Source: an uncultured bacterium
GTDB taxonomy: Bacteria; Bdellovibrionota; JACOXK01; 2-02-FULL-40-11
NCBI GenBank assembly: GCA_964392415.1
Contig: CAYMPL010000003.1
Span: 1-55,041, forward strand
Direction of reading: 5' to 3'
Length of the DNA: 55,041 bases
Positions 34,056-54,906 of the stretch are shown one piece after another. Below the pieces are notes generated by a model. It searched no databases and had not been told where the DNA came from. It was given only the letters and a program-made list of their open reading frames with translations. Position numbers and translations under genes: made by a program. Numbering within the stretch: the first letter of the stretch is position 1; each line of letters starts with the position of its first letter.

Positions 34056-34058
34056 CAG

Positions 34059-34370
34059 ATGTTACACGTTGAATTAAAGCATTACCTCGTTCTCTCATCC
34101 ATTCTTTTTGTGCTTGGAATTCTCTCGATTATTTCAAGAAAAAACTCGATTGGGGTTTTGATGGGGATAGAACTTGTGCTGATCTCCGCAAGTATTAATT
34201 TTGTCGCATTCTCAAAATATATCGCGATGGATCTCTCAGGGCAGGTTTTTGCCCTCTTTCTTTTCATTATTTCGGTTTCAGAAGCGATCGTCGCTCTCGC
34301 CATTGTGCTCCGGATTTATCAAAACAGGGCATCTGTAGATATGGATGATGTCGGAGATCTTAAATGTTAA
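34059..34370 (+). CDS. nuoK: Complex I subunit K (set 1)
   Basis: MGIELVL and VSEAIVALA (both conserved Glu). Confidence 0.93.
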   Translation: MLHVELKHYLVLSSILFVLGILSIISRKNSIGVLMGIELVLISASINFVAFSKYIAMDLSGQVFALFLFIISVSEAIVALAIVLRIYQNRASVDMDDVGDLKC

Positions 34371-36358: not shown

Positions 36359-36367
36359 GGAGGAAGC

Positions 36368-37918
36368 GTGATTTTACCAGAATTTATTTCAGATCATATT
36401 TTAAGCTGGATGGTCCTTTCACCCCTTATTGGAATAGCGCTGATTCTTCTTATTCCACGGCTCCAGAACAACGCCATTCGCTGGATTTCAGTTTTGACGA
36501 CCGCGATTCCCCTCTTATTGTCGGTTGCCCTTATTTTTCTTTTCGATCGGGATGAGGCCGGGATTCAATTTGTAGAAAGGGCCCCCTGGATTACGAGCTT
36601 TAATATCTATTACTATCTGGGGACCGACGGGCTCTCGGTCACGATGCTTCTTCTGACCGCCCTGCTCTCATTCCTCTGTGTGTTCGCCTCATGGGGGATC
36701 GACAGAGGGGTCAAAGGCTATTTCTCGATGTTTCTTCTTTTGGAAACAGGGATGATGGGGGTCTTTGCCGCCCTCGACTTCTTTCTCTTCTATCTCTTCT
36801 GGGAAGTGATGCTCCTTCCGATGTATTTCTTAATCGGCGTCTGGGGGGGACCCAAAAAAGAGTTCGCCGCGATCAAGTTCTTTCTCTATACCCTCTTTGG
36901 CTCTGTCCTCATGCTCGTTGTTATGCTTGCATTTTATTTTTACAGTGAGCCGCATACTTTCGACCTCGTTGAACTCTCAACCGGGATTCTTCAATTTAAA
37001 AACGTGGAAATTTTTGGAATTTCATTGACGCCGGAAACATTCCGAAGAATCCTCTATATCTTTCTATTCATTGGTTTTGCGATTAAAGTTCCCATCTTCC
37101 CGTTTCATACATGGCTCCCTCTCGCGCACGTCGAAGCTCCCACCCCAATTTCTGTTCTCCTTGCCGGAATACTTTTAAAAATGGGGGCATACGGACTCTT
37201 AAGGATCAGCTTTCCGATTTTACCGGAGGAAACAATTTGGTTTGCTTACCCACTTGCGTTTATGGGACTGATCAATGTGATCTATGGAGCTTTTTGCGCG
37301 ATGGCTCAGATTACGCTCCCCGCCTCCAAAGGGGGAAACGACTGGAAAAAACTGATCGCCTATTCATCGATTAATCACATGGGGTATGTTCTCTTGGGAA
37401 TGTCTGTTTTTACAACGGAGGGGATGAACGGAGCTGTTTTCCAGATGTTTAATCATGGCACAACGACGGCAATGCTCTTTCTTTTGGTCGGTGTTATCTA
37501 CGACCGCGTCCATCACAGAAAGATCGATGGCTTCGGGGGGCTAGGTGCTCAGCTTCCTGTCTACACAGGCGTTGTCGCGTTGGCTTTCTTTGCGTCACTT
37601 GGACTGCCGGGGCTTTCGAGCTTTATCTCTGAAGTGCTTGTATTTTTGGGGGCATTTAAGGTTTACCCGACAATCACTATTCTAGCCACTCTCGGCATTA
37701 TCCTCAATGCGGCCTTTTTCCTCTGGGTATTCCAGAAAATCTTTTTTGGCCCGCTCAATAGCAGCTATAAAGATCTTAAAGATTTAAATTGGCGTGAGAA
37801 GGTCTCGCTGATTCCGCTTTCTATTATTGTGGTTGCGCTTGGGGTCTATCCCATGCCAGTCCTCAACCTCATGAAGGCAAGTCTTGATAAACTGATTCTT
37901 TTAATTCAGGCCACTTAA
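36368..37918 (+). CDS. nuoM: Complex I subunit M (set 1)
   Basis: FWEVMLLPMY, AIKVPIFPFHTWLP.AHVEAP, LLKMGAYG, FISEVL. Confidence 0.95.
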   Translation: MILPEFISDHILSWMVLSPLIGIALILLIPRLQNNAIRWISVLTTAIPLLLSVALIFLFDRDEAGIQFVERAPWITSFNIYYYLGTDGLSVTMLLLTALLSFLCVFASWGIDRGVKGYFSMFLLLETGMMGVFAALDFFLFYLFWEVMLLPMYFLIGVWGGPKKEFAAIKFFLYTLFGSVLMLVVMLAFYFYSEPHTFDLVELSTGILQFKNVEIFGISLTPETFRRILYIFLFIGFAIKVPIFPFHTWLPLAHVEAPTPISVLLAGILLKMGAYGLLRISFPILPEETIWFAYPLAFMGLINVIYGAFCAMAQITLPASKGGNDWKKLIAYSSINHMGYVLLGMSVFTTEGMNGAVFQMFNHGTTTAMLFLLVGVIYDRVHHRKIDGFGGLGAQLPVYTGVVALAFFASLGLPGLSSFISEVLVFLGAFKVYPTITILATLGIILNAAFFLWVFQKIFFGPLNSSYKDLKDLNWREKVSLIPLSIIVVALGVYPMPVLNLMKASLDKLILLIQAT

Positions 37919-37925
37919 GGAAAAC

Positions 37926-39398
37926 ATGGAAAATCTTTCTACAGCTCTTCTTCTTTATTCGCCCGAAATGATCATCGCCATCACACTCTGTTTCGCGCTC
38001 ATTATCCAGATGATTTCAAAGAATAAGACGCTGACTTTTCTAACCGTCCTTTCGGGACTTCTTGTTTCAGCTTATGCCAGCCTTCGGCTGAGCGAAGTTG
38101 AGCCGCAAACCTATTTTTCAAATCTTCTCAGTCACGATCCCTTTTCTCTCTTTTTTAGAGCCTTCTTTATATTAGCGACTTTTTTCACTTTTCTTTTCAG
38201 CTTCACATCTCATGAGATCTCGGAAGACCGCCATTCTGAATTTTATTTGATGATACTTTCTGTTCTCATCGGAATGACAACGCTCGTTTCTTCCATAAAT
38301 ATCCTCTCGCTCTATCTTTCATTGGAACTGGTGAGTATTGTCTCTTATGCTCTTGCCGGTTTTAGAAAGGAGCATCCCGCTTCAAACGAAGCGGCCATTA
38401 AATATCTCCTTTACGGGGCCATGGCATCGGGAACGATGCTTTGGGGGCTATCGCTTCTCTATGGACTGACAGGAACACTCAATCTCTATCTTCTTAAAGC
38501 AGCCCTTTCTTCTTCCTATATTGATCCCCTCTCACTCCACGCTATTTTCATCATGCTCCTTTTTGGATTTGGATTTAAGATGGCATTTGTTCCATTTCAT
38601 ATGTGGGCGCCGGATGTCTACCACGGAGCTCCCACCCCGACTGCCGCTTTTTTTACGGTTGCCCCAAAAGCCGCAGGGTTTGCGATCTTTATTCGCTTTT
38701 TCTACACCGTTTTTGCAAATCCGGTCGGTAATGGAACTGAATGGGTCTGGTACGCAAATCTTAACTGGCCGCTTTTTATTGCGATTCTTTCAGCCCTAAC
38801 GATGACCGTTGGAAATTTATCCGCGCTTTTTCAAAAGAATGCCAAACGGATGCTCGCTTATTCAAGCATTGCCCACGCTGGATATATGATGCTGGGACTC
38901 GTCGCCCTGACACAATCGGGAATTTCTGCGGTTCTCTTTTATATCGTTGTTTACTTTTTTATGAATTTTGGGGCCTTCTTTATTGTGGGGCTCGTGGGAA
39001 ATATCTTTAAAAATGAAGAAATCTCAAATTTTAAGGGACTGGGATGGAAATCGCCGCTGGTTGGAATTTCTATGGCGATCTTCCTTTTATCTCTCACAGG
39101 ACTCCCCCCTCTCGGCGGTTTTATCGGAAAGGTTTATCTTTTTTTAGCGCTCGTTCAGAAAGAGATCTACTGGCTGCTGATTGTGGCAATTATCAATACC
39201 GTTATTTCACTTTATTACTACGCATATATCATCCGTGAAATGTTTCTTGAAAAACCGGAAAATGAAACCCGGATTGTTCTTTCCCCGCTCCATGCAGTCA
39301 CACTCCTTCTTCTTGTCGTTCCAACCGTTGTTCTTGGCATCTATTGGGAACCGTTAATGACCTACGTTTCAAAATCGCTGCAATTTGTACAACCTTAA
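37926..39398 (+). CDS. nuoN: Complex I subunit N (set 1)
   Basis: LELVSIVSY, GFKMAFVPFHMWAPDVY, PKAAG, KRMLAYSSIAH, FIGK. Confidence 0.95.
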   Translation: MENLSTALLLYSPEMIIAITLCFALIIQMISKNKTLTFLTVLSGLLVSAYASLRLSEVEPQTYFSNLLSHDPFSLFFRAFFILATFFTFLFSFTSHEISEDRHSEFYLMILSVLIGMTTLVSSINILSLYLSLELVSIVSYALAGFRKEHPASNEAAIKYLLYGAMASGTMLWGLSLLYGLTGTLNLYLLKAALSSSYIDPLSLHAIFIMLLFGFGFKMAFVPFHMWAPDVYHGAPTPTAAFFTVAPKAAGFAIFIRFFYTVFANPVGNGTEWVWYANLNWPLFIAILSALTMTVGNLSALFQKNAKRMLAYSSIAHAGYMMLGLVALTQSGISAVLFYIVVYFFMNFGAFFIVGLVGNIFKNEEISNFKGLGWKSPLVGISMAIFLLSLTGLPPLGGFIGKVYLFLALVQKEIYWLLIVAIINTVISLYYYAYIIREMFLEKPENETRIVLSPLHAVTLLLLVVPTVVLGIYWEPLMTYVSKSLQFVQP

Positions 39399-41074: not shown

Positions 41075-41971
41075 ATGAAAAAAGAATCTTTGGCTCAGGG
41101 GGCGATGATTGTCATATCCGCCGTTTGGGGTTCAACTTTTATTATGGTGAAAGAAGCCTTGAACGGCGTGCATCCTTTGACGCTCACCAGTTTTCGTTTT
41201 TTGATCGCCTCTTTTCTTTTGCTTCCGTGGGTTTTTAAGAAAAGAAGCTCTTTTAGAAACGCCCTTTCAGCGGGCTGTTATTTGGGAATTTTTCTTTGGA
41301 TTCTTTATCTCACTCAGACATGCGGGCTTTATTTTACTTCGGCCGCAAATTCCGGTTTTCTCACCGGGCTCTTTATTGTATTTATCCCGATATTTCTCTT
41401 TTTTGTTTCCGGAGTACGCATCGGGAAATTTCAAATTTTCACCATTGGTTTGGCCACCTTCGGCGTGTGGCTCTTAACAGGCGGGGTGGAGAAGTTCAAT
41501 ATCGGCGACGGACTCACCATTATCTGCGCATCTGCTTACGCGGCGCACGTTCTTCTGATCGACCGATATGCCAAGAGTTCCCTGGAACCTGTGCATTTGG
41601 CCTTCATTCAGTTTTTTCTGGTAGGTTTCTTAAGTCTTCTTGCCTCCCTCCCTATCGGAGAAAGAGCGTTCCTCATCGATCCCTCCGTTTGGGACAGCAT
41701 CATTTTTCTCACCCTTTTTCCAACGCTTCTTGCATTTTTTATCCAGCTTTGGGCTCAAAAATTTGTGTCCCCCGTTAAAGCCGGGCTCATCTATACTCTT
41801 GAACCCGCCTTTGCGGCGCTCTTTGCCTGGACTGTAGGAGGAGAAGAGATCACCTGGAGAGGGGTTTTGGGAGGAGGGCTTGCTTTCCTGGCAATTTTTC
41901 TTTCTGAATTTTATCATCAGCGTCATTCCGAGGCCGCAGGCCGAGGAATCTCGTCGGAAGCCTCTTGGTGA
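41075..41971 (+). CDS. EamA/DMT family transporter
   Basis: WGSTF, SAANSGFLTGL, EPAFAALFAW; about 10 TM segments. Confidence 0.88.
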   Translation: MKKESLAQGAMIVISAVWGSTFIMVKEALNGVHPLTLTSFRFLIASFLLLPWVFKKRSSFRNALSAGCYLGIFLWILYLTQTCGLYFTSAANSGFLTGLFIVFIPIFLFFVSGVRIGKFQIFTIGLATFGVWLLTGGVEKFNIGDGLTIICASAYAAHVLLIDRYAKSSLEPVHLAFIQFFLVGFLSLLASLPIGERAFLIDPSVWDSIIFLTLFPTLLAFFIQLWAQKFVSPVKAGLIYTLEPAFAALFAWTVGGEEITWRGVLGGGLAFLAIFLSEFYHQRHSEAAGRGISSEASW

Positions 41972-41981
41972 AAGCGGCTGA

Positions 41982-42030
41982 TTTTTTTACCTTGAGTAAT
42001 CCCATACAATTACATATAAAAAAAACGATG
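41982..42030 (+). promoter_or_regulatory. Promoter/operator block, copy 1 (before nuoA set 2)
   Basis: TTGAGT-N17-TATAAA-N7-ATG with GTAAT-N8-ATTAC; near-identical to 43735-43783. Confidence 0.7.
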
Positions 42031-42396
42031 CTTGTGGAGAATCACATTGCCGTCATGCTCATGTTTCTTTTTGCTGTTCTTTTGGGGGCGGCAATGATCG
42101 GGCTTTCGGCGGTGGTGGGGCGTGTCAAACGCGACCCCGAAAAGCTCTCTGTTTACGAGTGCGGCGCCCCCCCTTCAGGAACCTCAAGAGAGCGATTTTC
42201 GGTCAAATTTTATCTGGTGGCTATCTTCTTTCTCATCTTTGATATTGAAATCGTTTTTCTTTATCCCTGGGCGCTGATTTTTAAACGCCAGCTTTCACAG
42301 GGCCCTTTGATTTTGGTTGAAATGCTGATTTTTCTTGCCCTTCTCATCGTCGGTTATCTTTATATATGGAAAAAACGGGGGCTTGAATGGGATTAG
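42028..42396 (+). CDS. nuoA: Complex I subunit A (set 2)
   Basis: VYECG, RFSVKFYLVAIFFLIFDIE, RGLEWD. Confidence 0.95.
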   Translation: MLVENHIAVMLMFLFAVLLGAAMIGLSAVVGRVKRDPEKLSVYECGAPPSGTSRERFSVKFYLVAIFFLIFDIEIVFLYPWALIFKRQLSQGPLILVEMLIFLALLIVGYLYIWKKRGLEWD

Positions 42397-43556
42397 GTAA
42401 TTAATCCAAGTTCTTTTAAGCCTTCCCGCCAAGGAATAGCGAGAATATTCCCAATCTTTTTTTTATGTGGATCCCTTGAAAAAATGAAGGCTTCGGCGTT
42501 TTTGAAATCTTTTAAAAATCTTTCCAGGGTTCGACTATCTCGTTCATCAATATGATCATTCGATTTAATTTCAATCAGCGCAGTCGGTTCTCCAGGTCTC
42601 TCAATAATTAAATTGATTTCTGCATTGTCTTTTGTTCTAAGATAGGAAAGGCGGTAATCTTTTTTAAAATATTGATTTAAACGATCTATTTCTATAATCA
42701 AAAAATGTTCAAATGCCTTACCAAATGCATAAGTATTTGGAAGCAATTTTACCGGAAGCTGCCGTGCCAGAGCTCTTTGAATGCCTGTATCAAAGAAATA
42801 AAATTTCGGATTCGTTCGCTGCTGTTTTCGAATCGATCGATGATGCGGTTCAAGCATAAAACCGATCAATGTATCTTCCAGAATCTGAAAATAAGATTGA
42901 ACCGTTTTTGTGTCACTGCCAACATCCCTTGCTATATTTGTAAAATTAATAATCTCACCATTGGCTTGTGCGGCAATTTCAAGAAACCGTCTAAACGGAT
43001 CCAATTTTCGGATGATGTGCTCAGCCCAGATCTCCTCCTTCAAATAGGTCTGCGCGTAGGATGTCAAATAGTCATGTTTTTCTTCTTCTGTTTTCAAGTG
43101 AAAGATTTTCGGGAGCGTCCCCCAGTGTAGTGTTTCTCCAAGATCGAACGAATCGCCGAGTTCGACGTGGGTCAGTGAAAAGAGATGATTGACAAATGCT
43201 CGGCCCGCCAGAAGATTTGCCCCTCCCTTTTTCAATTTTCGCGCGCTTGATCCGGTCATTGAAAATTTAATTGGCGTTGATTCAATGAGCGAATGGACAA
43301 CATCGAGCAGCTTGGGCTGTTTCTGAATTTCATCGATAATAATCCAGTCGATCGAACCGATCTGAGCTTTTGCCTGTTCTGCTAAGACAGCAGGATTTCT
43401 TAAAAAAAGGTCTTCTGTTTTGGGATCAAGGAGGTCGAACCAGAGGATGCGTCCATCTTTAAAAAACATCTGTAAAAACGTAGACTTACCTGTTCCACGC
43501 GCTCCAAATATAAAAAAACTATTTGATTTCAGAGGCTTAATAATCCTATGGAACAT
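42393..43556 (-). CDS. AAA_14 ATPase with DUF4143-type C-terminal domain
   Basis: GARGTGKST, IIIDEIQK, TGSSA, PKFYFFDTG, IEIKS. Confidence 0.85.
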   Translation of the reverse strand: MFHRIIKPLKSNSFFIFGARGTGKSTFLQMFFKDGRILWFDLLDPKTEDLFLRNPAVLAEQAKAQIGSIDWIIIDEIQKQPKLLDVVHSLIESTPIKFSMTGSSARKLKKGGANLLAGRAFVNHLFSLTHVELGDSFDLGETLHWGTLPKIFHLKTEEEKHDYLTSYAQTYLKEEIWAEHIIRKLDPFRRFLEIAAQANGEIINFTNIARDVGSDTKTVQSYFQILEDTLIGFMLEPHHRSIRKQQRTNPKFYFFDTGIQRALARQLPVKLLPNTYAFGKAFEHFLIIEIDRLNQYFKKDYRLSYLRTKDNAEINLIIERPGEPTALIEIKSNDHIDERDSRTLERFLKDFKNAEAFIFSRDPHKKKIGNILAIPWREGLKELGLIT

Positions 43557-43634
43557 ATTCCATATTTATACGATAATTATGGAGTTTTGTCCACAATTAG
43601 TTTATGTCGGCAATAAGTCGTTCGTCAAAAAAAT

Positions 43635-43723
43635 GAGATCCTTCGCCCTTCGGGGAGAGGCATGACACACAGGGATCCTTCGCTGCGCTCAGGATGACAG
43701 AGGGCTTCGGGCTCAGGATGACA
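43635..43723. repeat. Cluster of three REP-like units
   Basis: GAGATCCTTCG..., GGATCCTTCGCTGCGCTCAGGATGACA, CTTCGGGCTCAGGATGACA. Confidence 0.75.
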
Positions 43724-43734
43724 GATATTGAAAG

Positions 43735-43783
43735 TTTTTTGCCTTGAGTAATCTCCTATAATTACATATAAAAAAGGGCGATG
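43735..43783 (+). promoter_or_regulatory. Promoter/operator block, copy 2 (before nuoH set 2)
   Basis: TTGAGT-N17-TATAAA-N8-ATG with GTAAT-N8-ATTAC. Confidence 0.7.
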
Positions 43784-44833
43784 TCACCTCTGGATTTTAC
43801 GATCCTTTTCATAAAGATTGTTGTTGTCCTTGGGGTTTTGCTCAATATGGTCCCCCTTCTGGTCTGGGTTGAAAGGCGGGGAGCGGCATTCATTCAGGAT
43901 CGCCCCGGCCCTAATCGGGTTGGCCCTTTGGGGCTTTTTCAGCCGCTTGCAGATGCGCTGAAGTTTATTTTTAAAGAAGATCCGATCCCCTTTCATGTCG
44001 ATCCCGTCCTTTTTATCCTTGCCCCGCTGTTTGCGCTGATCCCGGCTGTTGTCACATTTGCCGCCATCCCTTTTGGGGATACGATTGAACTTTTTGGAAG
44101 AACCATCACGCTTCAGGTCGCCGATATGAATATCGGCATTCTCTATATTCTTGCGTTCGGTTCCCTCGGTGTTTATGGAATTCTTATCGCCGGATGGGCA
44201 TCAAACAACAAATACTCAACCCTCGGCGCGCTCCGTTCATCGGCTCAAATGATCAGTTACGAAATCGCGATGGGGGCCGCGCTCGTCGGCCCTCTGATGA
44301 TCTATGAAACATTCTCTTTGAAAGAAATGGTCTTTCGACAAGAAGCAATCTGGGGGATTTTTCTTCAACCCCTCGCCTTTGTCATTGTTTTGATAGCCGC
44401 TTTTGCTGAATGCAATCGATTGCCGTTCGACCTTCCGGAAGGGGAGGCGGAAATTGTTGCTGGTTATCACACGGAATACGGAAGCATGAAATTTGCGATC
44501 TTTTTTATGGCTGAATATCTGCATGTCGTTACGATTTGTTCGTTAATCGCAACCCTCTTTCTTGGCGGGTGGCATTTGATTCCTGGGATGGTGACCGTTG
44601 CGGAATGGGTTGGGATTCCGACATTTCCAACTTCGGTTGGGCTCTCGCTTCTTCAGGTTGCTTCCTTCTGCATTAAAACAGCTTTTATGATCTGGATTTT
44701 TATCTGGGTCCGATGGACATTTCCAAGATTTCGTTATGACCAGCTCATGTCCTTTGGATGGAAAATCATGGTCCCGCTGGGACTCGTCAATATTCTTTTA
44801 ACAACAGTTGCGCTCTATTTTAAATGGATTTAA
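43781..44833 (+). CDS. nuoH: Complex I subunit H (set 2)
   Basis: ERRGAAFIQDRPGPNRVG, ADALK, RLPFDLPEGEAEIVAGYHTEY, RFRYDQLM. Confidence 0.95.
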   Translation: MSPLDFTILFIKIVVVLGVLLNMVPLLVWVERRGAAFIQDRPGPNRVGPLGLFQPLADALKFIFKEDPIPFHVDPVLFILAPLFALIPAVVTFAAIPFGDTIELFGRTITLQVADMNIGILYILAFGSLGVYGILIAGWASNNKYSTLGALRSSAQMISYEIAMGAALVGPLMIYETFSLKEMVFRQEAIWGIFLQPLAFVIVLIAAFAECNRLPFDLPEGEAEIVAGYHTEYGSMKFAIFFMAEYLHVVTICSLIATLFLGGWHLIPGMVTVAEWVGIPTFPTSVGLSLLQVASFCIKTAFMIWIFIWVRWTFPRFRYDQLMSFGWKIMVPLGLVNILLTTVALYFKWI

Positions 44834-44837
44834 GTTC

Positions 44838-45347
44838 ATGGCAATGCTCTATCAGATAACCATTTGGCTGCTCTCGGCAATCTGCATTGTTTGCGCCCTC
44901 TCCGTGATTCTCCAGAAAAATCCTGTGGTCAGCGCGATTCATCTCATCGGCTGCTTTTTTGCGCTCGCCGGGCTTTTTTTGATGCTTCAGGCGCCGTTTC
45001 TTGCGGCAGCTCAAATCATTGTCTATGCTGGCGCCATTATGGTTCTTTTTATTTTTGTCATTATGCTTCTTAATCTCAAAAAAGATCCGGAGCGTTTTTC
45101 GAGAGCAAGACTCTTTAGACTCCCCAGGATCGTCCTCCTTCTCCTTTTGCTTTTTTCATTTTTAACTTCCATTTTTGCAACGGCGTTCCCTTTTGTGTCG
45201 CATAGGGGGGCTAATATAGGAAGGTCTGTGGGCGATGTGGCAACGCTTCTTTTTACCAAATATCTTTTCCCTTTTGAACTTGCATCTCTGCTTCTTCTCA
45301 TCGCCATGATCGGGGGGATCGTGATGGCAAAAAAAAGGGCGCCATGA
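44838..45347 (+). CDS. nuoJ: Complex I subunit J (set 2)
   Basis: [32 protein letters not shown]. Confidence 0.93.
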
Positions 45348-45643
45348 GCTATTCGTACTATTTAATTTTAAGCTCCATTTTATTTACGATCGGCGTCTCC
45401 GGTGTTTTGCTGAGACGCAATCTCATTGTGGTTTTTATGTCTATTGAACTGATGCTAAACAGCGTCAATCTTCAACTCGCCGCCATTTCCAAATATCTTC
45501 ACTTTCTGGACGGACAAATTTTTGTCTTTTTCATTATTACGGTTGCCGCGGCGGAAGCAGCCGTGGGGCTTGCGATTGTCATTGCTTTGTACCGCCATAA
45601 AGAAACAACCAACATTGACGAGATCAATCTTTTAAAAGGGTAA
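45344..45643 (+). CDS. nuoK: Complex I subunit K (set 2)
   Basis: [18 protein letters not shown]. Confidence 0.95.
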
Positions 45644-45645
45644 CC

Positions 45646-47547
45646 ATGATTACACTGATCCTTCTCTCTCCATTACTCGGTTTTTTAATCAATGGCCTGA
45701 TCGGAAAAAAACTCCCCAAAGCGATGGTGGGGGGAATTGCCTGTTTTACCGTATTTATCTCTTTTGTCTTTTCATTCTATTCTTTCATTCAGTTCCTCGA
45801 CAGCCCTGAGGTGTGGCGAAATCTCTCCACCACGCTTTTTTCATGGATTCCTCTTTTGGGGGTTGATGTCGCATTAAAACTCGATCCGTTATCACAGCTG
45901 ATGGTTCTTGTGGTCACGGGCGTCGGTTTTTTTATTCATCTCTATTCAGTCCATTACATGGATCATGACTCGGGATTTGCCCGATATTTTTCGTATCTCA
46001 ATCTCTTTATCTTTTCGATGCTGCTTCTGGTCCTCGCAAATAATCTTTTGCTTCTTTTTATTGGATGGGAAGGGGTGGGTCTCTGCTCGTATCTTTTGAT
46101 CGGCTTTTGGTTTGAAGACGAAGAAAAAGCGATGGCGGGGAAAAAGGCTTTTATCGTCAACCGGATCGGAGATCTTGCGTTTCTCATCGCTCTTTTTCTG
46201 GTGTTTGCCACCTTCGGAACCCTAAACATCGACAGTCTTAAATTTGCCGAAGTCTCTCCGGAACAGAGAGCAACGATCGGTCTTATCACCCTCCTTCTCT
46301 TCATCGGAGCCTGCGGCAAATCCGCGCAAATCCCCCTCTACGTTTGGCTCCCGGACGCAATGGCAGGCCCCACACCGGTTTCCGCGCTGATTCATGCCGC
46401 AACGATGGTAACGGCGGGGGTCTATATGGTCGCGCGTCTCCATTTTTGGTATGTTCTTGCCCCCGCTACGATGACCGTTGTGGCTGTGACTGGCCTTGTG
46501 ACTGCTCTCTTTTCAGCGGCAATAGCCTTCTTTCAAAACGACATCAAAAAAATTCTTGCCTACTCAACCATCAGCCAGCTTGGATATATGTTCCTTGCGG
46601 TTGGAATTGGAGCCTTTTCCAGCGGCATTTTTCACCTCATCACGCACGCATTTTTCAAGGCGCTCCTCTTTTTGGGGGCAGGGAGTGTGATTCACGCCCT
46701 TTCCAATGAACAAGATATTCAGAAAATGGGGAATCTCCGGTCAAAACTCCCACTGACACATCTGACTTTTCTTTTTGGAACACTCGCGATTATCGGCATT
46801 CCCCCTTTCTCGGGATTCTTCAGTAAAGATGAAATTCTTTGGATGGCATTTAATCGTCATCCGCTTTTTTGGGTTTTGGGCCTGATCGGGGCATGGATGA
46901 CAACTTTCTATATGGTCAGGCTTTTTACTCTCGTCTTCTATGGCTCCTCACAGCCAGAAAAAAAACAAGAACGCTTGCATCAGCCGCATGAGGCCCCGCC
47001 ACTGATGGCGCTGGCATTAATTGTGCTTTCTATCTTTACGCTGCTCGGCGGCCTCATCGGTGTCCCCTCTATTCTTTATAAGATTTTAAAGATTGATCAC
47101 TTTCTCGACGTCTTCCTAAAACCGACATTCCCCGTTCACCTTGCGACAGATGCGGGTCATCATCTTGAATATCTTTTGATGGGTCTGACCATCTCGGGAA
47201 CAGCGCTCATTGCCGTTTTGACCTTTCTTCTTTATCACCGATACCGGGAAACTGCCCTTCATTGGAAACTTAAATTCAGAGCTCTTCATAAGATCGTCGC
47301 AGATAAATTTTATGTGGATGAATTGTATGATCTCCTCCTGGTTCGTCCTCTCAACCGAGGCGCGGACTTTCTCCTGCGCACGTTTGACTTGAAAATCATC
47401 GATGGTTTTGTCAATGGTCTGGCAAAAATGAATCTTTATGGAGGTAACCGCTATTCCGTGATCCAAAATGGAAATCTTCAGACATACGCTTTCATCTTTG
47501 TGCTGGGGGCATTTTTGGTCATGCTCTATTATTTACGGGGATTTTGA
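45646..47547 (+). CDS. nuoL: Complex I subunit L (set 2), normal-length helix
   Basis: GWEGVGLCSY, GKSAQIPLYVWLPDAMAGPTP, HAFFKA, FFSKD, IQNGNLQTY. Confidence 0.95.
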   Translation: MITLILLSPLLGFLINGLIGKKLPKAMVGGIACFTVFISFVFSFYSFIQFLDSPEVWRNLSTTLFSWIPLLGVDVALKLDPLSQLMVLVVTGVGFFIHLYSVHYMDHDSGFARYFSYLNLFIFSMLLLVLANNLLLLFIGWEGVGLCSYLLIGFWFEDEEKAMAGKKAFIVNRIGDLAFLIALFLVFATFGTLNIDSLKFAEVSPEQRATIGLITLLLFIGACGKSAQIPLYVWLPDAMAGPTPVSALIHAATMVTAGVYMVARLHFWYVLAPATMTVVAVTGLVTALFSAAIAFFQNDIKKILAYSTISQLGYMFLAVGIGAFSSGIFHLITHAFFKALLFLGAGSVIHALSNEQDIQKMGNLRSKLPLTHLTFLFGTLAIIGIPPFSGFFSKDEILWMAFNRHPLFWVLGLIGAWMTTFYMVRLFTLVFYGSSQPEKKQERLHQPHEAPPLMALALIVLSIFTLLGGLIGVPSILYKILKIDHFLDVFLKPTFPVHLATDAGHHLEYLLMGLTISGTALIAVLTFLLYHRYRETALHWKLKFRALHKIVADKFYVDELYDLLLVRPLNRGADFLLRTFDLKIIDGFVNGLAKMNLYGGNRYSVIQNGNLQTYAFIFVLGAFLVMLYYLRGF

Positions 47548-49067
47548 TGTTTTTGGAAAACACTCTTTTAACGATCGTGATTTTTCTTCCGCTCATGGGG
47601 GCGCTCCTGCTCTTTTTGCTGCCGGGGATTGTCCGACATCACGCGCAGTGGATCGCGCTCGGAATCGCCGCATTTGAATTTGGTCTTTCTATCTTAATTT
47701 TCGATTTTTTTGATCCCTCCACCCATCTTCTTCAACTGGTTCAAAAAACCCCCTGGATTCCTTCCCTTGGAGTTTCCTATTTTATTGGCATTGATGGCAT
47801 CAGTCTCTGGCTTGTCTGTCTTACCACTTTTTTAACCCCTGTTGTTATTCTCGCCTCAGAGATCAAAGACCGGGGGTATCTCGCTTCTTTTTTAATTTTG
47901 GAAACGGCAATGGTCGGCACCTTCCTAGCGCTCGATCTTCTCCTCTTCTACCTTTTCTGGGAGATGATGCTCATTCCAATGTATTTCATTATTGGCATGT
48001 GGGGGGGGGCAAGACGAATTTACGCAACGCTCAAATTTTTTATTTACACATTGGCAGGGGGTGTTTTTATGCTCCTTGGCATTATCTTTTTAATTTATCT
48101 CCATCACGAACAGTTCGGATTTTTCTCGGCAAGCCTTCTCGATATTTACGCGGTTCAAATCCCTTTTGACTATTCGCATTTTCTAAACCCCCAGAATCTT
48201 CTTTTTCTCGCGTTTGCTGTTGCCTTCCTGATCAAAGTCCCGATGTTCCCATTTCATACCTGGCTCCCCGATGCCCATGTGGAAGCGCCGACAGGGGGGA
48301 GTGTCATTCTGGCAGGGGTCCTTTTGAAAATGGGGGCCTATGGTTTCTTAAGATTTGCAATCCCTCTTTTCCCGGAGGCGACAACATTTTTTACCCCGGC
48401 TCTGATTGCGCTTTCGCTCATCGGCGTAATTTACGGCGCTTTCCTCGCCCTCGCTCAAAACGATTTAAAAAAACTGGTTGCCTATTCATCGATCAGCCAC
48501 ATGGGGCTTGTCATGCTTGGGATCTTTGTTTCAAATGGCTTTGGATTGAGCGGCGGTGTTTTTCAGATGCTCTCTCACGGCGTCTCAACAGGGGCGCTCT
48601 TTCTTTTGGTCGGCATCCTCTATGAGAGACGTCATACACGCGAGATCTCCCATTTTGGCGGACTGACCAAAGTCATGCCGATGTATGCTGTTTTTTTCAT
48701 GATTATCACGCTCTCATCGCTCGCACTGCCAACGACCAATGGCTTCATTGGAGAATTTCTGGTTCTTCTCGGCGCCTTTTATGAGCAGCCGCTGTATGCC
48801 GTACTGGGAGGAACCACAGCCATTTTTAGCGCCACCTATCTTTTGAGAATGTATCAAAAGGTGATGTTTGGCCCACTGAAATATGAAGAGAATAAAGGAT
48901 TGAGAGATTTATCCCCCAAAGAAATTGCCTCTCTCATTCCGATTATGATCATGATTTTCTGGATGGGATTATACCCAAAAACATTTTTAAGTAAGATGGA
49001 GAAATCGATCGATCATCTGGTTTCACAGAGACATTCGTATCAGTTGGAGATTTATGAGAAAAAGTAG
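47547..49067 (+). CDS. nuoM: Complex I subunit M (set 2)
   Basis: FWEMMLIPMY, IKVPMFPFHTWLPDAHVEAP, LLKMGAYG, FIGEFL. Confidence 0.95.
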   Translation: MFLENTLLTIVIFLPLMGALLLFLLPGIVRHHAQWIALGIAAFEFGLSILIFDFFDPSTHLLQLVQKTPWIPSLGVSYFIGIDGISLWLVCLTTFLTPVVILASEIKDRGYLASFLILETAMVGTFLALDLLLFYLFWEMMLIPMYFIIGMWGGARRIYATLKFFIYTLAGGVFMLLGIIFLIYLHHEQFGFFSASLLDIYAVQIPFDYSHFLNPQNLLFLAFAVAFLIKVPMFPFHTWLPDAHVEAPTGGSVILAGVLLKMGAYGFLRFAIPLFPEATTFFTPALIALSLIGVIYGAFLALAQNDLKKLVAYSSISHMGLVMLGIFVSNGFGLSGGVFQMLSHGVSTGALFLLVGILYERRHTREISHFGGLTKVMPMYAVFFMIITLSSLALPTTNGFIGEFLVLLGAFYEQPLYAVLGGTTAIFSATYLLRMYQKVMFGPLKYEENKGLRDLSPKEIASLIPIMIMIFWMGLYPKTFLSKMEKSIDHLVSQRHSYQLEIYEKK

Positions 49068-49073
49068 CAGTTT

Positions 49074-50522
49074 ATGACAGAACAGCTTTTTTACTTTTCA
49101 CCTCTTCTTATTCTTACCATAACCGCGCTCTTTGTCCTTCTCATTGACGCCTTTCTTAAAAACGGAGCGCCAAAATTGGCATTTCTTCTTTCCCTCATTG
49201 GCATCTCCGCCGCCTCTTTCGCCTGCATTGAGCTTTGGAAAGAGCCTACCCTCTCTCTCTTTTATGAAGCGATCCGGCTCGACCGGTTTTCACTCTTTTT
49301 TACGTTACTTTCTCTCTTTTTAATCCTTTTGACTCTTTTAAATACCTATCGTCCCCTCATGGAAAAGAGACTGCCAGCAGGGGAATTTTTATTCTTTCTG
49401 CTCTGCTCCGGCATCGGGATGTCACTCATGGCATGGGCGACCGATTTAATCACGCTTTTTATGAGTTTAGAAATCATGAGCCTCTCGGTCTACATCTTGA
49501 CAGGAATTGAAAAGGAGAGAATCACCGCCACGGAAGGGGCGTTTAAATATTTTCTGCTCGGTGCTTTCTCAACTGGTTTTTTGCTCTATGGAATTGCCCT
49601 GATCTATTCAATCACAGGCTCCGTTCTCTTCTCTGATATCTCAAATTTTCTTGTGGTCTCAAAACAGACGCTCCCAACCGTTTTTTACATCGGAGCGGCG
49701 CTCCTCATGGTAGGCTTCGGATTTAAAATCGCCGCCGTCCCCTTTCATATGTGGGTCCCCGATGTTTATGAAGGGGCGGGAACGGCTGTAACAGCACTCA
49801 TGGCGACCGGGGTTAAGGCCGCAGGCTTTGCCGCATTGGTTCGTTTTTTTATTGTGTCTCTTCTGTCCCTCAAAACAGAGTGGAATTTTGTCTTATTTTG
49901 GCTCGCTGTATTAACGATGACGGTCGGAAATCTTGCGGCATTGGTTCAGACGAACCTCAAACGGATGCTTGCCTATTCGAGTATTGCGCACGCCGGATAT
50001 CTTCTTGTGGCTGTCTCGGCAACGCAGGCGCAAAACTTCGATCTTGGAACAAGCGCGATTCTCTTTTATCTGATCGCCTACGGACTGATGACGATTGGCG
50101 CATTTTCTGTCATGATTTTTGCAAGCCATCACAAAGAAAGAAACTTCCTTGATGACTATGCGGGATTCGGGCTTCAGCATCCGTATCTCGGTCTTGCAAT
50201 GGTTCTTTTTATGCTCTCGCTGACCGGCATCCCTCTCACGGCAGGATTTATCGGAAAGTTTTATATTTTTAGCGCCGCCCTTAAATCAAAAGACTTTATT
50301 CTCGCCGTCATTGCAATAATGAACAGCATCATCGCGGCCTACTATTACCTTCGCGTCATTGTTGTGTTTTATATGAAGCCGCAGACTTCGCCGATTGCGA
50401 TTCAATCATCTTTTGCGCTTAATTTGTCCCTGCTTCTTACTTCCATCGGAACCCTTGGACTCGGCCTCTTTCCTTCTCAGATTCTTAAAATTATCAAAGA
50501 TTCCGTAACCGCGCTTTTGTAA
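49074..50522 (+). CDS. nuoN: Complex I subunit N (set 2)
   Basis: LEIMSLSVY, GFKIAAVPFHMWVPDVYEGA, VKAAG, FIGKFY. Confidence 0.95.
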   Translation: MTEQLFYFSPLLILTITALFVLLIDAFLKNGAPKLAFLLSLIGISAASFACIELWKEPTLSLFYEAIRLDRFSLFFTLLSLFLILLTLLNTYRPLMEKRLPAGEFLFFLLCSGIGMSLMAWATDLITLFMSLEIMSLSVYILTGIEKERITATEGAFKYFLLGAFSTGFLLYGIALIYSITGSVLFSDISNFLVVSKQTLPTVFYIGAALLMVGFGFKIAAVPFHMWVPDVYEGAGTAVTALMATGVKAAGFAALVRFFIVSLLSLKTEWNFVLFWLAVLTMTVGNLAALVQTNLKRMLAYSSIAHAGYLLVAVSATQAQNFDLGTSAILFYLIAYGLMTIGAFSVMIFASHHKERNFLDDYAGFGLQHPYLGLAMVLFMLSLTGIPLTAGFIGKFYIFSAALKSKDFILAVIAIMNSIIAAYYYLRVIVVFYMKPQTSPIAIQSSFALNLSLLLTSIGTLGLGLFPSQILKIIKDSVTALL

Positions 50523-50556: not shown

Positions 50557-52020
50557 TTAAATAATCTTCCACGGCACTCTCACATCCCCTTTTCGAACCG
50601 TCCATTTCTGCTCATCAAAGAATTGGAGATAAGGAATTGCGAATTTTCGCGAGATGGAGAACATATTTTTGAGATCGATGACCCGCATTTCGGAGTGCGT
50701 CTTAAAAAAATCGGCCAGTTTCAATTTTAATGACGCGAGTCCGGCCGATGAAATATAAAAATCACCGGGAAGTCTTGTGATTTCCCGCTTATTTTGAAGA
50801 GCCTTGAGAACCGGGTTGATCTCATTTTCCGCGGAGCCGAACTTTTTGACGAGATCGGTGATTTCAAATGCCTCTAATGTATTTGAACGACTCTGAAAAA
50901 AGTTTAAAATGGCTGCATAAAGAGCCCCATTAAAAAGAGGCTTTGCGTCGACAATCGGCTTCTCTTTTTTGCCAAAACCAATAGATGCTTTCTCAAGCGG
51001 ATTCGGATTTATGATGATGCCTCCACCACTGGTGGTTTCTCGTCGTAAAATGAACCGATCGCCAGGGAGAAGAGCCAGGGGTTTGGAAAATCTGAGAAAG
51101 CTATGGCCAGTCTGATCTAGAGGACGAATCTTTACTTGTGCGCGGCTGGTTCCGATATGGATTGTAAAATAACCCTCTGCTTTTTTCTCAAGCTGTGCGG
51201 AGGCTCTCTTTGTAACAGACAGCGCCCCCTTTTTTCCTAATACCTCCCCTCGATGAACTTCAACTTTTGAAACCCCTTTTATATTGAGCGCAGCCCGCGA
51301 AGGGGCATTAAGCTCCGCATACGACTTCCCGTAAGCATGGATTTGACGAACACGAACCATTTTTCCCAGCGGATAGAGTTCAAGCTGATCTTCCAATCGA
51401 AGGCATCCCGAAATGAGGGGACCCGTAACAATAGTGCCATGACCGGGGAGCGTAAAGACGCGATCAATGAAAACCCGCGTGACTCCTTCGCTTCGGTTTT
51501 GATGACCTATGATTTGATCACAGTCAAAAATTTTTTGTTTTAGCGCATCTATCCCCTCTCCTGTTTTTGCTGAAACAAAAAGAGGAGTACTGATCTCCAA
51601 AAATGTCCCTCTCAGTTCTTTTTGAAGCCGATCGAGGGTGAAAAGACGTTCTTCTTGGCACAAAAGATCGGCTTTTGACAAAACCACAATCCCTTTTTTA
51701 ATTCCGAGAAGCGTTAAAATTGAAAGATGCTCACGGCTTTGCGGCATCATCCCTTCATTGGCGGCAATCACAAACAAGACAAGATCGATCTGCGCCGCCC
51801 CCATCACCATTGTTTTCACAAACCGCTCATGACCGGGGACATCGACAATTCCAACAACGAACTCATCTGAAAACCGAAGGGGCGCAAATCCCAATTCAAT
51901 GCTGATGCCGCGCTCTTTTTCCTGCGGCAGACGATCTGTATCAATCCCCGTAAGCGCTTTGGTCAACGCGGTTTTTCCGTGATCGATATGTCCCGCGGTG
52001 CCAACAATAAAAGATTTCAT
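50557..52020 (-). CDS. selB: Selenocysteine-specific elongation factor (compact)
   Basis: [28 protein letters not shown]; C-terminal [13 protein letters not shown]...RKGDVR winged-helix motif. Start set at [10 protein letters not shown]. Confidence 0.9.
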
Positions 52021-52075
52021 TGAAAGCGATTTAGCAGAGTTTGACTGCTGATACAACCCATGAAGTATTCATTAC
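52018..52075. repeat. Imperfect 58-bp direct repeat, copy A
   Basis: 50/58 identical to 53566-53623; includes the selB ATG. Confidence 0.8.
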
Positions 52076-52110
52076 TTGCTCTGAATAGGCCGCTTTATTT
52101 TCTACTTTGT

Positions 52111-52683
52111 TCAAAAAAACCACTGAGGCAGGTTTAGATTCATTTTTAGGGCGTATTTTTTGAGTTTCGTTTTTTTAAGCATATTTAAATTCCATTCTTT
52201 GAGCTCAATCAGGTTCGGAGACAAAACAGCCTTATTCAGATAAATATAATCCAGAAGCGCTTTTTCAGGTTCCGCAAGTGCGCAGCCGGGTTGATCTTTG
52301 AATCCAAAAAAATATTTTTTTTGAATATGCTGATAACTGATGGTTCCGAAAGAAGTCTGCAATTTATAGGGGGATCCCAATGTGACGCAAGTCAGCACGT
52401 GTGGCATCTGACTTAAAATGCCAAATCGGCTGAGCGCGGATTCCAATGAGATGTAATTGGGTTGCTGAATCTGCGAAGAAATTTCGTCTAGCGTGGGAAG
52501 ATTAAATGGATTTGCATAATAATTTCGACAAATTCGAGCAATGATGTTTTGTTTTGACAAGCGCGACAGATTGATTCTGAGGGAAATCGCTTTACTATGG
52601 GTTAATAATTTTAAATGATTGATATGAAAAATTTTAATATTTTTATTTTTTTTGAAAAAACACAGCCAATCACGCGTTTTCAT
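52111..52683 (-). CDS. AbiEi-like type IV antitoxin / transcriptional regulator
   Basis: PNYISLESALSRFGILSQ, ISYQHI, AEPEKALLDYIYL. Confidence 0.8.
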   Translation of the reverse strand: MKTRDWLCFFKKNKNIKIFHINHLKLLTHSKAISLRINLSRLSKQNIIARICRNYYANPFNLPTLDEISSQIQQPNYISLESALSRFGILSQMPHVLTCVTLGSPYKLQTSFGTISYQHIQKKYFFGFKDQPGCALAEPEKALLDYIYLNKAVLSPNLIELKEWNLNMLKKTKLKKYALKMNLNLPQWFF

Positions 52684-52686
52684 TTC

Positions 52687-53517
52687 TTATCTTAATTTTT
52701 TGAAATTTTCGAGAGATTGAATAATTCTTTTACAAATCATGTCATATTGATCTTCAAAAATTTTTCTATAATTCAGAGGTAAAAAACGATCCATTTCTTG
52801 TCGCAAAATAGAAACACCGTTCCGAGACAGCGCTTCAATATTTTTATGGAATTTTAAATTAAATTTCTTCTTGGAAACATGATAATCTTTAAGTTTTTTT
52901 TGAACGATGCGCTTTGTTTTTGCGTGAATGGTGAGCTTGAGTGTTTCAAGCAGAAAAAAGAGATCCCAAATATCCCTTCCTTTCAGATATTCTCTGGCCG
53001 AAAAAGCGACGATTTTATCGCATAAAATTTCTTCCGGTGTTTCAACTACGACAGCGGGATGAAATGGAATTTTTGAAATTTGCAGAATTACAGGATGATG
53101 CGTGTACGAAGGGACGTTTGCGACTTCGATATTCGTTCTGTCTTCAAGCTTCAGCTCCGGAATGTTCAAGCGCAGATGCCATCTGAGAAAAGTGTCGGAT
53201 TTTTTCTGGATTTTAATTTCGCTTTTTTCAACGAAGGGGAACTGCTTTTCCATATAAGAGGAAAGCTTTTGAAAGGGGCGATCGAAGTGTTGAAAGAAAG
53301 AAGAGGGGCTTCGGCTCAGAACAAAGTCAAGGTCTTCCGAATAGCGAACACCGCCATAGCACATGCGAAGCGCTGTTCCGCCCTGAAAAACGAGGTGAGA
53401 GAAAAGCCCTTTTTTAAAGAGGTAATCCAAAATGAGACCGTGGATGTATTCTTTTAAGACGAGTGAAACAGCCACACCCGCGTCTTGAGCTTCTCTCTGA
53501 ATATCCGCCAGGTTCAT
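52687..53517 (-). CDS. AbiEii-family nucleotidyltransferase type IV toxin
   Basis: LVFQGGTALRMCYGGVRYSEDLDF, EILCDKI, KGRDIWDL. Confidence 0.88.
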   Translation of the reverse strand: MNLADIQREAQDAGVAVSLVLKEYIHGLILDYLFKKGLFSHLVFQGGTALRMCYGGVRYSEDLDFVLSRSPSSFFQHFDRPFQKLSSYMEKQFPFVEKSEIKIQKKSDTFLRWHLRLNIPELKLEDRTNIEVANVPSYTHHPVILQISKIPFHPAVVVETPEEILCDKIVAFSAREYLKGRDIWDLFFLLETLKLTIHAKTKRIVQKKLKDYHVSKKKFNLKFHKNIEALSRNGVSILRQEMDRFLPLNYRKIFEDQYDMICKRIIQSLENFKKLR

Positions 53518-53524
53518 GATTTAT

Positions 53525-53553
53525 ATAATATACAAATATGTATATTTAGTCAA
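53525..53553 (-). promoter_or_regulatory. AbiE promoter with palindromic operator
   Basis: TTGACT-N17-TATTAT-N7-ATG; AATATACA-N4-TGTATATT at 53527-53546. Confidence 0.65.
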
Positions 53554-53565
53554 TTAAAGAAACCG

Positions 53566-53623
53566 CATGGAGAGCGATGTAGCAGAGTTTGTCTGCTGAT
53601 ACAACTAAGGAAGTATTTATTAC
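53566..53623. repeat. Imperfect 58-bp direct repeat, copy B
   Basis: Matches 52018-52075; includes the stop codon of the upstream gene and an orphan ATG. Confidence 0.8.
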
Positions 53624-54906
53624 GGAATAGCGAGAACAAAATCTTGAAGGCCTTTATTCACAAAATCATCCCCCGACTGTTGTATGCATCCGCCTATGAC
53701 GGTGGCTTTGTCGCCAGAAGATACGGCTGAGCCGGGAACATCCAGGCTTCGTGCCATCCCATCGGCTGAAATCGTTTGAGTGACTGCTACTTCACCCGCG
53801 GGTGTCGAACCGAAAACACTCTCTTCACCATTATGAATCTGCCCTCCAAAAGCTCCTCTAAAATTACCGTTCTGGTCAAAAACATTCACGCCTGAAAAAC
53901 CAGAAAACATATCCTTAACACTCGGAACAAAATTCCCCTTTATTTCGAATTTAACTCTTTCGCCTGCCCGAACGACGGTTGCGCCTGTAATTGTAAAGTT
54001 TTTACACGTCCTCTCCCCCCCAGCTGTGGGAGCAGCCGCTTGATCTCCTGACGGAGCAGGTGTTGGAGTAATAATTTGATCAGTAGGCGGCAGCGGTTCT
54101 TCCGGCACGGTTACTGGCTGATCAGATGGACCGCTGATGGGGGTTGTTTGCACCGGCGAAACTTCAGGACAGCAGCATTTTGCAAAACCGAAAACATTTA
54201 ATTTTAAATGAATCGATCTATCGATTCCCCCTGCCTCATACCCCTGAGAAAAATCGATTATCCCTTTGATCTCCTGCCTGAAGCAGACATTTTTCCCATC
54301 TTTTTCAGGCCCCTCTACCGCTGCGACTTCTAAGAGACTCAAAATTTGTTCAAGAATCTCTCCCTGGGTTGTTTTTCGAAATTGAGCGCCCCCCCCTTCG
54401 CTGTTAGCGTTAATTTCATTCTCCATTAATGCTATGACTGTTACCCCTGCGATATCTTCTCCAGGAGGGATTTCAACCGGCGTTTCCGTAATCCGCGCTG
54501 GATCATCAGAGGATTTCGATCGATCTTCTATGACCTCGGATACCTTGATATCGAGAACTGAGATATCGAATAAAAGGAAACAGCCCTCTGTCAGTTCAAT
54601 TTTTCCAGTCAGTTTTGGGGCAGAAATCTTAGGAATGAAGACGAAAGTCTCCCCTTGGGGAATCTCCTCTTTTTTCTGTTGCTGAAAAGCTTTAAATCCA
54701 GCAAGCATCTCACCCATCTGACGGTTACGGCGGATTCTAAACATGTTACCTTCAAGCTCAATACCCGGCGCAATATCAATACCCCCTTCCGGCGTTTTTC
54801 TTATTAAACCGCCTAATGTATCTTTTGGCCTACACTCTATTTGCACGCCATTGGCCAAAAGAAGGGGACTAAGGAGTAGGCTTAAAAGAACGATCCAGTA
54901 TTTCAC
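53620..54906 (-). CDS. Hypothetical exported two-domain protein with P/T-rich linker
   Basis: AGGAG SD, GTG start, signal peptide MKYWIVLLSLLLSPLLLA; CCC motif. Confidence 0.7.
   Translation of the reverse strand: MKYWIVLLSLLLSPLLLANGVQIECRPKDTLGGLIRKTPEGGIDIAPGIELEGNMFRIRRNRQMGEMLAGFKAFQQQKKEEIPQGETFVFIPKISAPKLTGKIELTEGCFLLFDISVLDIKVSEVIEDRSKSSDDPARITETPVEIPPGEDIAGVTVIALMENEINANSEGGGAQFRKTTQGEILEQILSLLEVAAVEGPEKDGKNVCFRQEIKGIIDFSQGYEAGGIDRSIHLKLNVFGFAKCCCPEVSPVQTTPISGPSDQPVTVPEEPLPPTDQIITPTPAPSGDQAAAPTAGGERTCKNFTITGATVVRAGERVKFEIKGNFVPSVKDMFSGFSGVNVFDQNGNFRGAFGGQIHNGEESVFGSTPAGEVAVTQTISADGMARSLDVPGSAVSSGDKATVIGGCIQQSGDDFVNKGLQDFVLAIP

Follow-up and report, generated by a model that had tools for sequence, protein, structure and literature searches.

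How does a two-gene toxin-antitoxin (TA) module that carries no recombinase come to stand at the very start of selB, between two copies of that gene's leader, with both neighbouring genes undamaged? The question is raised by contig CAYMPL010000003.1 of assembly GCA_964392415.1, from an uncultured member of the Bdellovibrionota, whose 55,041 nucleotides were analysed as a whole (hereafter the window). On its minus strand an AbiE cassette lies between direct repeats of 58 bp that take in a putative selB promoter and the selB start codon. We consider it on balance probable, though well short of certain, that the cassette entered by a long target-site duplication made in situ, through functions supplied in trans or by the host.

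The repeats occupy window positions 52018-52075 (copy A) and 53566-53623 (copy B), are spaced 1548 nt apart and agree at 50 of 58 positions, exactly as the preliminary description of this DNA had reported. Its reading of the minus strand was likewise reproduced, both copies running GTAAT..TTGTAT-17 nt-TA(A/C)ATC-7 nt-ATG. Copy A, the downstream copy, is the working selB leader, with a -35 element TTGTAT (52056-52051), a 17-nt spacer, a TG-extended -10 element TAAATC (52033-52028), 7 nt and an ATG (52020-52018), which does begin SelB as had been stated: the 487-aa product (50557..52020, minus strand) matches the Pfam domains GTP_EFTU (1.5e-32) and SelB-wing_3 (1.5e-14). Copy B, the upstream copy, combines the TAA (53622-53620) of a 428-aa open reading frame (ORF) with a duplicate of the selB promoter, in which the -10 has become TACATC, and an ATG from which nothing longer than the 4-codon ORF ATG CGG TTT CTT TAA can be read, in agreement with the claim that it holds the upstream gene's real stop and a start codon leading to no gene. 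The promoter call in the 58-mer is plausible: its geometry and the TG-extended -10 are kept in four relatives (L002-L005, described below), and a strict sigma-70 consensus scan fails to return it, TAAATC lacking the final T. The distance from the -10 element to the ATG in copy A indicates that the selB mRNA is probably leaderless.

A 26-nt core of the 58-mer occurs exactly twice in the window (none expected, from 100 shuffles), self-blastn of the window returns the pair at E=2.9e-12, and the exact core had no match in the genome_contigs and metagenome_contigs collections scanned; the check for further copies that had been proposed thus finds that the 58-mer is not dispersed. Homology of the two copies past 58 nt is not significant on either side (P=0.067 left, 0.275 right), and a longer duplication, plausible by eye, was rejected on that ground. 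The low coverage of the locus (about 3-9x) and a variant contig that branches inside copy B at 53605 could suggest a chimera of two strains joined at shared sequence, an explanation to which we give almost no credence. The copies are 14% diverged and never identical over more than 13 nt, which is too short a run to confuse an assembler. Furthermore, a groundwater sample from Hainich, assembled independently (4,853 bp), shows the identical arrangement, and both junctions are crossed by Logan contigs from several public runs; the arrangement is therefore not an assembly artefact. The variant contig, from run X3, equals the window over 52725-53605 and then diverges into a loose end (CTATGATCTATAATATTCAACAGCTCGAAA, plus strand) whose reverse complement has CTGTTGAATATTA in common with L002 4543-4555; an X7 contig terminates at the same base, and the branch may represent a co-existing haplotype that has AbiE and lacks the 428-aa gene.

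The state of the locus before the cassette arrived can be read from the four relatives, whose SelB proteins are 84, 76, 69 and 58% identical to that of the window (L002 to L005, respectively). Each has a single leader copy and no AbiE, selB adjoins nuoN in all of them, and the segment corresponding to the 58 bp is the sole intergenic region from the upstream stop to the selB ATG. The single site of L002 aligns with copy B and its left flank (window 53645-53566, 86.6%) and also with copy A and selB (window 52075-50557, 85%). Because this is the topology of an empty site, with the left flank of copy B joined to the right flank of copy A, the locus is an insertion that duplicated its target. The left flank in the alignment consists of the last codons of the 428-aa gene, which end NFILNIP before the stop in L002 and DFVLAIP before the stop in the window, and the ancestral order was therefore probably gene, stop, 58-mer, selB. 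An exact empty site with the 428-aa gene ahead of selB was sought and not obtained, the sole homologue of this gene lying in another context.

In the window, copy B retains the stop of the upstream gene and copy A retains the promoter and start of selB, so that neither neighbour is damaged. Compared with the L002-type sequence, copy B has one base changed in the -10 element, and copy A has two between the -10 element and the ATG together with several just past the now-useless stop. Private changes in both copies fit a duplication of resident sequence in situ, followed by drift. The earlier proposal of an entry at the selB start that duplicated a long stretch of target sequence and kept the upstream stop and the selB promoter and ATG is thus upheld by the flanks of L002 and by the one-repeat sites that it had suggested looking for, which are present in L002, L003, L004 and L005. 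The selB locus is moreover a hotspot for TA insertion, since L004 carries two other TA pairs there, a TumE-like/HVO_A0114 pair upstream of selB (436-1114) and a MazE/PIN pair between selB and nuoN (2776-3347).

The 1,490 bp between the repeats contain only abiEii, abiEi and their own promoter, arranged as 48 nt with the promoter, which is a strong one, abiEii, abiEi and a further 35 nt, all on the minus strand. The promoter segment (53518..53565) reads TTGACT (53553-53548), 17 nt, TATTAT (53530-53525), 7 nt and ATG, and within it lies a palindrome, TATACA-N4-TGTATA (53544-53529), that is conserved in two related cassettes (L006 and L172) and is likely the AbiEi operator. AbiEii, the nucleotidyltransferase toxin (276 aa; 52687..53517), is recognised by Pfam (PF08843, 7.3e-27, above cutoff) and PADLOC (AbiEii, 1.7e-51). 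Its GG(T) and SEDLDF motifs are intact, residues G46 G47, S60 E61 D62 L63 and K179 G180 D182 are invariant among 24 homologues, and its nearest solved structure is AbiGII (PDB 9hlo, 7e-6). The antitoxin and regulator AbiEi (190 aa; 52111..52683), which starts 3 nt past the abiEii stop, is recognised by PADLOC over residues 9-182 (AbiEi, 7.9e-33); the Pfam model AbiEi_4 scores below cutoff (17.8 vs 25 bits), and no match was found among PDB sequences. The 35-nt spacer from the abiEi stop to copy A (52076..52110) could be what is left of a once longer duplication, a possibility for which the test was not significant.

In the AbiE systems studied in Streptococcus and Lactococcus the antitoxin gene lies upstream of the toxin gene. 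Here abiEii precedes abiEi, and both orders are found among the homologues; toxin-first order is a variant and not a ground for exclusion from the AbiE family. Compared with known type IV TA and abortive infection systems of this kind, to which MenA-MenT and AbiG are related, the cassette shares a DUF1814 AbiEii with intact motifs beside an AbiEi-family partner and a promoter palindrome, and differs in its gene order and in a transcript that is probably leaderless. The module is therefore an ordinary new family member with reversed gene order, and the unusual variant is its chromosomal placement. By analogy with other AbiE systems, the installed module most likely behaves as they do: AbiEii, a GTP-binding nucleotidyltransferase, would arrest growth, and AbiEi would neutralise it and repress the promoter through the palindromic operator. 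The GC content of the cassette (0.29-0.41) is lower than that of its flanks (0.42-0.49), which marks it as foreign and horizontally acquired.

Nothing in the cassette resembles a machinery for its own movement. Pfam and PADLOC searches found no recombinase domain among its contents, only the AbiE genes, which bears out the statement that the cassette has no integrase or transposase, and no integrase was found in the window genes neighbouring it. There are no terminal inverted repeats in this cassette or in that of L006, their alignments being no better than shuffles (P 0.73-0.99). Nor was an attC-like fold found: the 58-mer forms a hairpin of only 5-6 bp (z about -2), which is not conserved in L002, and the other flanking repeats examined have z about 0.

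The closest relative of the cassette addresses whether the repeats are attachment (att) sites, the second route of entry that the preliminary description had offered. The nearest AbiEii, 79% identical in amino acids, is encoded at L006, an unrelated site beside a methyltransferase-family gene, and the cassettes are homologous at the DNA level (window 53566-52120 with L006 164-1610, 78.5%). The homologous stretch starts where copy B ends on its inner side and does not quite reach the abiEi stop codon. The two cassettes thus have a left terminus common to within a few nucleotides, and their other ends lie at the abiEi stop or a short way past it. The L006 cassette is nevertheless bracketed by a repeat of its own, 104 nt long and 93% identical between copies, which derives from the 3' end of the neighbouring gene and is unrelated to the 58-mer. 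Because related cassettes share their ends and have unrelated, locus-derived repeats, it would appear that the element carries no attP site; moreover, the non-genic DNA inside the repeats amounts to 48 nt, holding the promoter, and 35 nt, which leaves no room for one. Att-like recombination is accordingly disfavoured, and the comparison favours a target duplicated as the cassette went in, rather than an element-borne attP or separate decay of two larger islands.

In a survey of metagenomes and GTDB genomes that took in 166 AbiEii loci, the insertion pattern proves recurrent. Repeats of 28-200 nt, spaced 1.2-2.3 kb apart around AbiEii, were counted as bracketing pairs, and 25 such pairs were observed, in 21 of the 166 loci, against 11.9 expected under a positional null. 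The enclosed DNA (1.44-1.87 kb) corresponds to two genes and a promoter, the final stop codon usually lies 0-40 nt from the second repeat, and the stop-to-start logic of the repeats holds also for unrelated repeats at other loci. The repeats are locus-specific both in size (58 nt in the window, 104 nt at L006 and 30-125 nt or more elsewhere) and in source. They derive from tRNA 3' halves at L156 (tRNA-Pro) and L133, from the 3' ends of neighbouring genes at L006, L101 and L134, from the first 37 codons of the downstream gene at L121, from the intergenic gyrB-gyrA stretch at L119, and from hairpin or REP-like (repetitive extragenic palindromic) elements at L022/L027, L115 and L166. Several cassettes follow one another in three arrays: two AbiE modules at L134, AbiE and an AAA_14-DUF4143 ATPase at L121, and a Panacea TA module, AbiE and an ATPase at L157. 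At ten bracketed loci examined no integrase was found within 3 kb, and a Mu-like transposase lies near one locus. In the literature we found no directly comparable earlier case of an AbiE or TA cassette between long duplications.

Two observations from these loci are recorded in their own right. At L119 (2806-4339), in a metagenome-assembled genome of Saganbacteria, an AbiE cassette with 45-nt flanking repeats lies between gyrB and gyrA. The flanking repeats of three AbiE loci have the hexamer GTATCA, or its complement, in common (window 52046-52052, L006 about 108-114 and L164 2269-2288, where it is a palindrome), a pattern seen post hoc that may be due to chance.

The window itself holds a second insert of similar form, 8 kb from the first, and in both the duplicated stretch takes in the promoter of the downstream gene as far as its ATG. 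Its first repeat (41983..42030, plus strand) is a copy of the nuoH promoter through the ATG and now heads nuoA; its second (43735..43783, plus strand) comprises the nuoH promoter (TTGAGT-17-TATAAA-8-ATG) and the nuoH start. They match over 41 nt at 90% identity, or over 48 nt when one indel is allowed. The body (42031..43734) carries nuoA (42028-42396, plus strand) and an AAA_14+DUF4143 ATPase gene (42393-43556, minus strand). L004 again provides an empty site, with a single repeat copy directly before nuoH and neither nuoA nor the ATPase. Genes for such ATPases stand repeatedly next to AbiE (L121 4487-5872, L157 4170-5585, L164 4006-5292, L102 336-1526 and, in the window, 42393-43556), and in two cases (L121 and L157) the ATPase falls within the same repeat-bounded array as AbiE.

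In the model that we favour, the resident sequence would have been duplicated at the moment of insertion, and not imported as an att site. It is plausible that staggered breaks about 58 bp apart were filled in on both sides of the insert, or that a replication template switch re-entered upstream of its point of departure. Since the cassette has neither a recombinase nor terminal inverted repeats, the enzyme would act in trans or would be a host repair or replication function. The second insert and the similar cassettes elsewhere would then be products of the same process.

Several of our own results weigh against this model. The mosaic of differences between the copies would by itself also be compatible with one copy having been imported from a very close relative, and the two TA inserts of L004 have no border repeat of at least 20 nt. 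In the arrays L134, L121 and L157 the repeat copies have equal extents around different cassettes, which a random stagger would explain less well than site-specific or homology-driven integration, and two loci (L156 and L133) duplicate tRNA 3' ends, the classic target of integrases. With a control matched for gene boundaries, tight flanking repeats were found at 7 of 93 AbiE cassettes and 3 of 121 control segments (Fisher P=0.08). Enrichment specific to AbiE, strong under the positional null, was dropped after this stricter comparison (7.5% vs 2.5%, P=0.08), in which the control hits may include neighbouring cassettes of the same arrays, several of which are held by L134, L121 and L157; the insertion pattern is recurrent, and specificity for AbiE is not claimed.

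The main rival is a remnant of the type known as a cis-mobilizable element (CIME). An island whose integrase targeted the 5' end of selB would have created attL and attR, and all but the addictive TA pair would later have been deleted; in a variant, a cargo-only satellite would have been integrated by an integrase acting in trans. Direct repeats around integrase-less cargo are the definition of a CIME, and tandem accretion at att sites is known for such elements (PMC5704250), to which the AbiE cassettes between tRNA 3' halves (tRNA-Pro at L156, and L133) and the equal extents of the array repeats could be likened. We nevertheless regard this origin as unlikely, if worth keeping in mind: neither attP arms nor island remnants fit into the 48 nt and 35 nt that lie between genes and repeats, two islands decaying independently would not be expected to arrive at near-matching ends beside unrelated repeats in the window and L006, and integrases are absent from within 3 kb of the ten comparable loci as well as from the neighbouring genes of the window. 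Less likely again, to our mind, is a Campbell-type event. Another strain would have released, from its own selB locus, a circle bearing the cassette and a captured selB leader, and one RecA-dependent crossover within the 58-mer would have integrated it here. Such an event would yield exactly repeat, cassette and repeat with both copies native-like, and would account for arrays of equal extent at one hotspot. It would, however, spread an existing arrangement among relatives and could not create the first duplication at a new locus, it sits poorly with the unrelated repeats of the window and L006, and 58 bp is short for RecA.

Evidence for circles was in any case lacking where we looked. The suggestion that the cassette could be excised by recombination between its repeats found no support: in Logan contigs from 8 groundwater runs at about 5x depth, which is weak evidence, no cassette-skipping contig and no circle junction was seen. 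RecA requires some minimal length of homology, and the repeats, 14% diverged and nowhere identical for more than 13 nt, now make poor substrates, so RecA-mediated excision should now be rare. Two metagenome contigs, L172 (1,464 bp) and L173 (1,459 bp), consist of exactly one AbiE cassette each (promoter, abiEii and abiEi). Their ends have no terminal overlap and they were rejected as circles; as a hint that, in other communities, the cassette is polymorphic for presence/absence or sits in more than one context, they lend the Campbell-type event some support. The 58-mer might also be a promoter or regulatory element put to repeated use, whose spread had nothing to do with the cassette and which brackets it by coincidence, given that highly similar 'putative mobile promoters' occur upstream of unrelated genes (PMC3575422) and that the 58-mer does contain a promoter-like element. 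This we consider highly improbable, as copy B duplicates the upstream stop and the selB ATG as well and drives only a 4-codon ORF, the sequence occurs twice in the window and nowhere in the collections scanned, L006 homology starts exactly at the inner edge of the repeat, and the stop-to-start logic recurs at other loci with unrelated repeats.

The duplication in situ that we favour has partial counterparts among known systems. IS1549 and IS1634 make long, variable target duplications of 8-514 bp, for which there is no mechanistic model (PMC2266710). The likeness lies in target-derived direct repeats of tens to hundreds of bp whose length varies by site; unlike the AbiE cassette, these insertion sequences carry a DDE transposase and terminal inverted repeats. 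CIMEs and cargo-only satellites share integrase-less cargo between direct repeats and, elsewhere, tandem arrays or tRNA 3' ends, whereas each AbiE locus has repeats of its own, unrelated even where the cassettes are close relatives, with defined shared cassette ends and no island remnants. Integron cassettes, including the TA cassettes of chromosomal integrons, are likewise small promoter-plus-ORF units ending right past the stop, in repeat-cassette-repeat-cassette order; the AbiE repeats, in contrast, are target-derived, with no attC-type dyad, no R'/R'' cores and no intI seen. Like a mobile promoter, the 58-mer is a promoter-bearing segment in two copies, but copy B is an insertion by-product that drives no real gene, whereas the copy at nuoA does head a gene.

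A broader generalisation is possible, which we offer tentatively and think doubtful as it stands: small defence and TA cassettes (AbiE pairs, AAA_14-DUF4143 ATPases and Panacea-type TA modules) may form a class of recombinase-less mobile units. These would insert at gene boundaries with target duplications of 30-400 bp, often reaching exactly a start codon, a stop codon or a tRNA end, and would build integron-like arrays separated by target-derived repeats, through an undescribed trans-acting or host mechanism. One option for such a class would be that, on leaderless genes, the DNA breaks where a promoter-bound complex ends.

The surroundings of the locus offer further observations. The 428-aa ORF (53620..54906, minus strand), whose stop lies inside copy B, encodes a secreted-looking protein with no Pfam match and a single homologue. 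SelB in the window and its close relatives is short (487-526 aa), missing the PF09106 winged-helix domain of homologues of about 632 aa. SelB cluster names gave no useful taxonomic placement, the nearest hits that carry a name being 'Deltaproteobacteria' MAGs at 48% identity. For selB, nuoH and abiEii (52018-52056, 43735-43783 and 53518-53553) the -10 element lies 7-8 nt before the ATG, with no Shine-Dalgarno sequence, a spacing that suggests that leaderless mRNAs may be widespread in this lineage. The window holds two paralogous nuo clusters (32800-39200 vs 44100-50300) of about 68-77% DNA identity, about 11.2 kb apart. Upstream of selB in the four relatives stands a conserved element of about 120 nt ending in a strong terminator hairpin (GCTGCCACTTG...CAAGTGGCAGCTTTTGT; L002 4380-4535, L004 100-235, L003 1-20 and L005 185-250); searches against Rfam and for tRNAs gave no match to this RNA-like element, and the window yielded no copy of it. 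A REP-like element, CATTCCGAGG-N6-CCGAGGAAT, occurs in the window (41924-41949), in L004 (1-33 and 252-284), where its two copies bracket the conserved RNA-like element, and in L003 (about 40-70).

TA and defence modules rank among the most mobile of prokaryotic genes. To our knowledge, the recombinase-free movement of solitary two-gene modules into core chromosomal regions is largely unexplained. The selB locus provides a clean case, in which filled and empty sites are both known, the ends of the cassette are defined and the duplication spares both neighbours. It is accompanied by the second insert of this genome and by about twenty look-alikes across phyla, one of them with gyrB and gyrA as its neighbours. 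If all of these share a mechanism, it would constitute a new route of gene insertion, one that is gentle on compact genomes. If they do not, the locus still shows how selB, a gene of an essential pathway, has retained its promoter after invasion.

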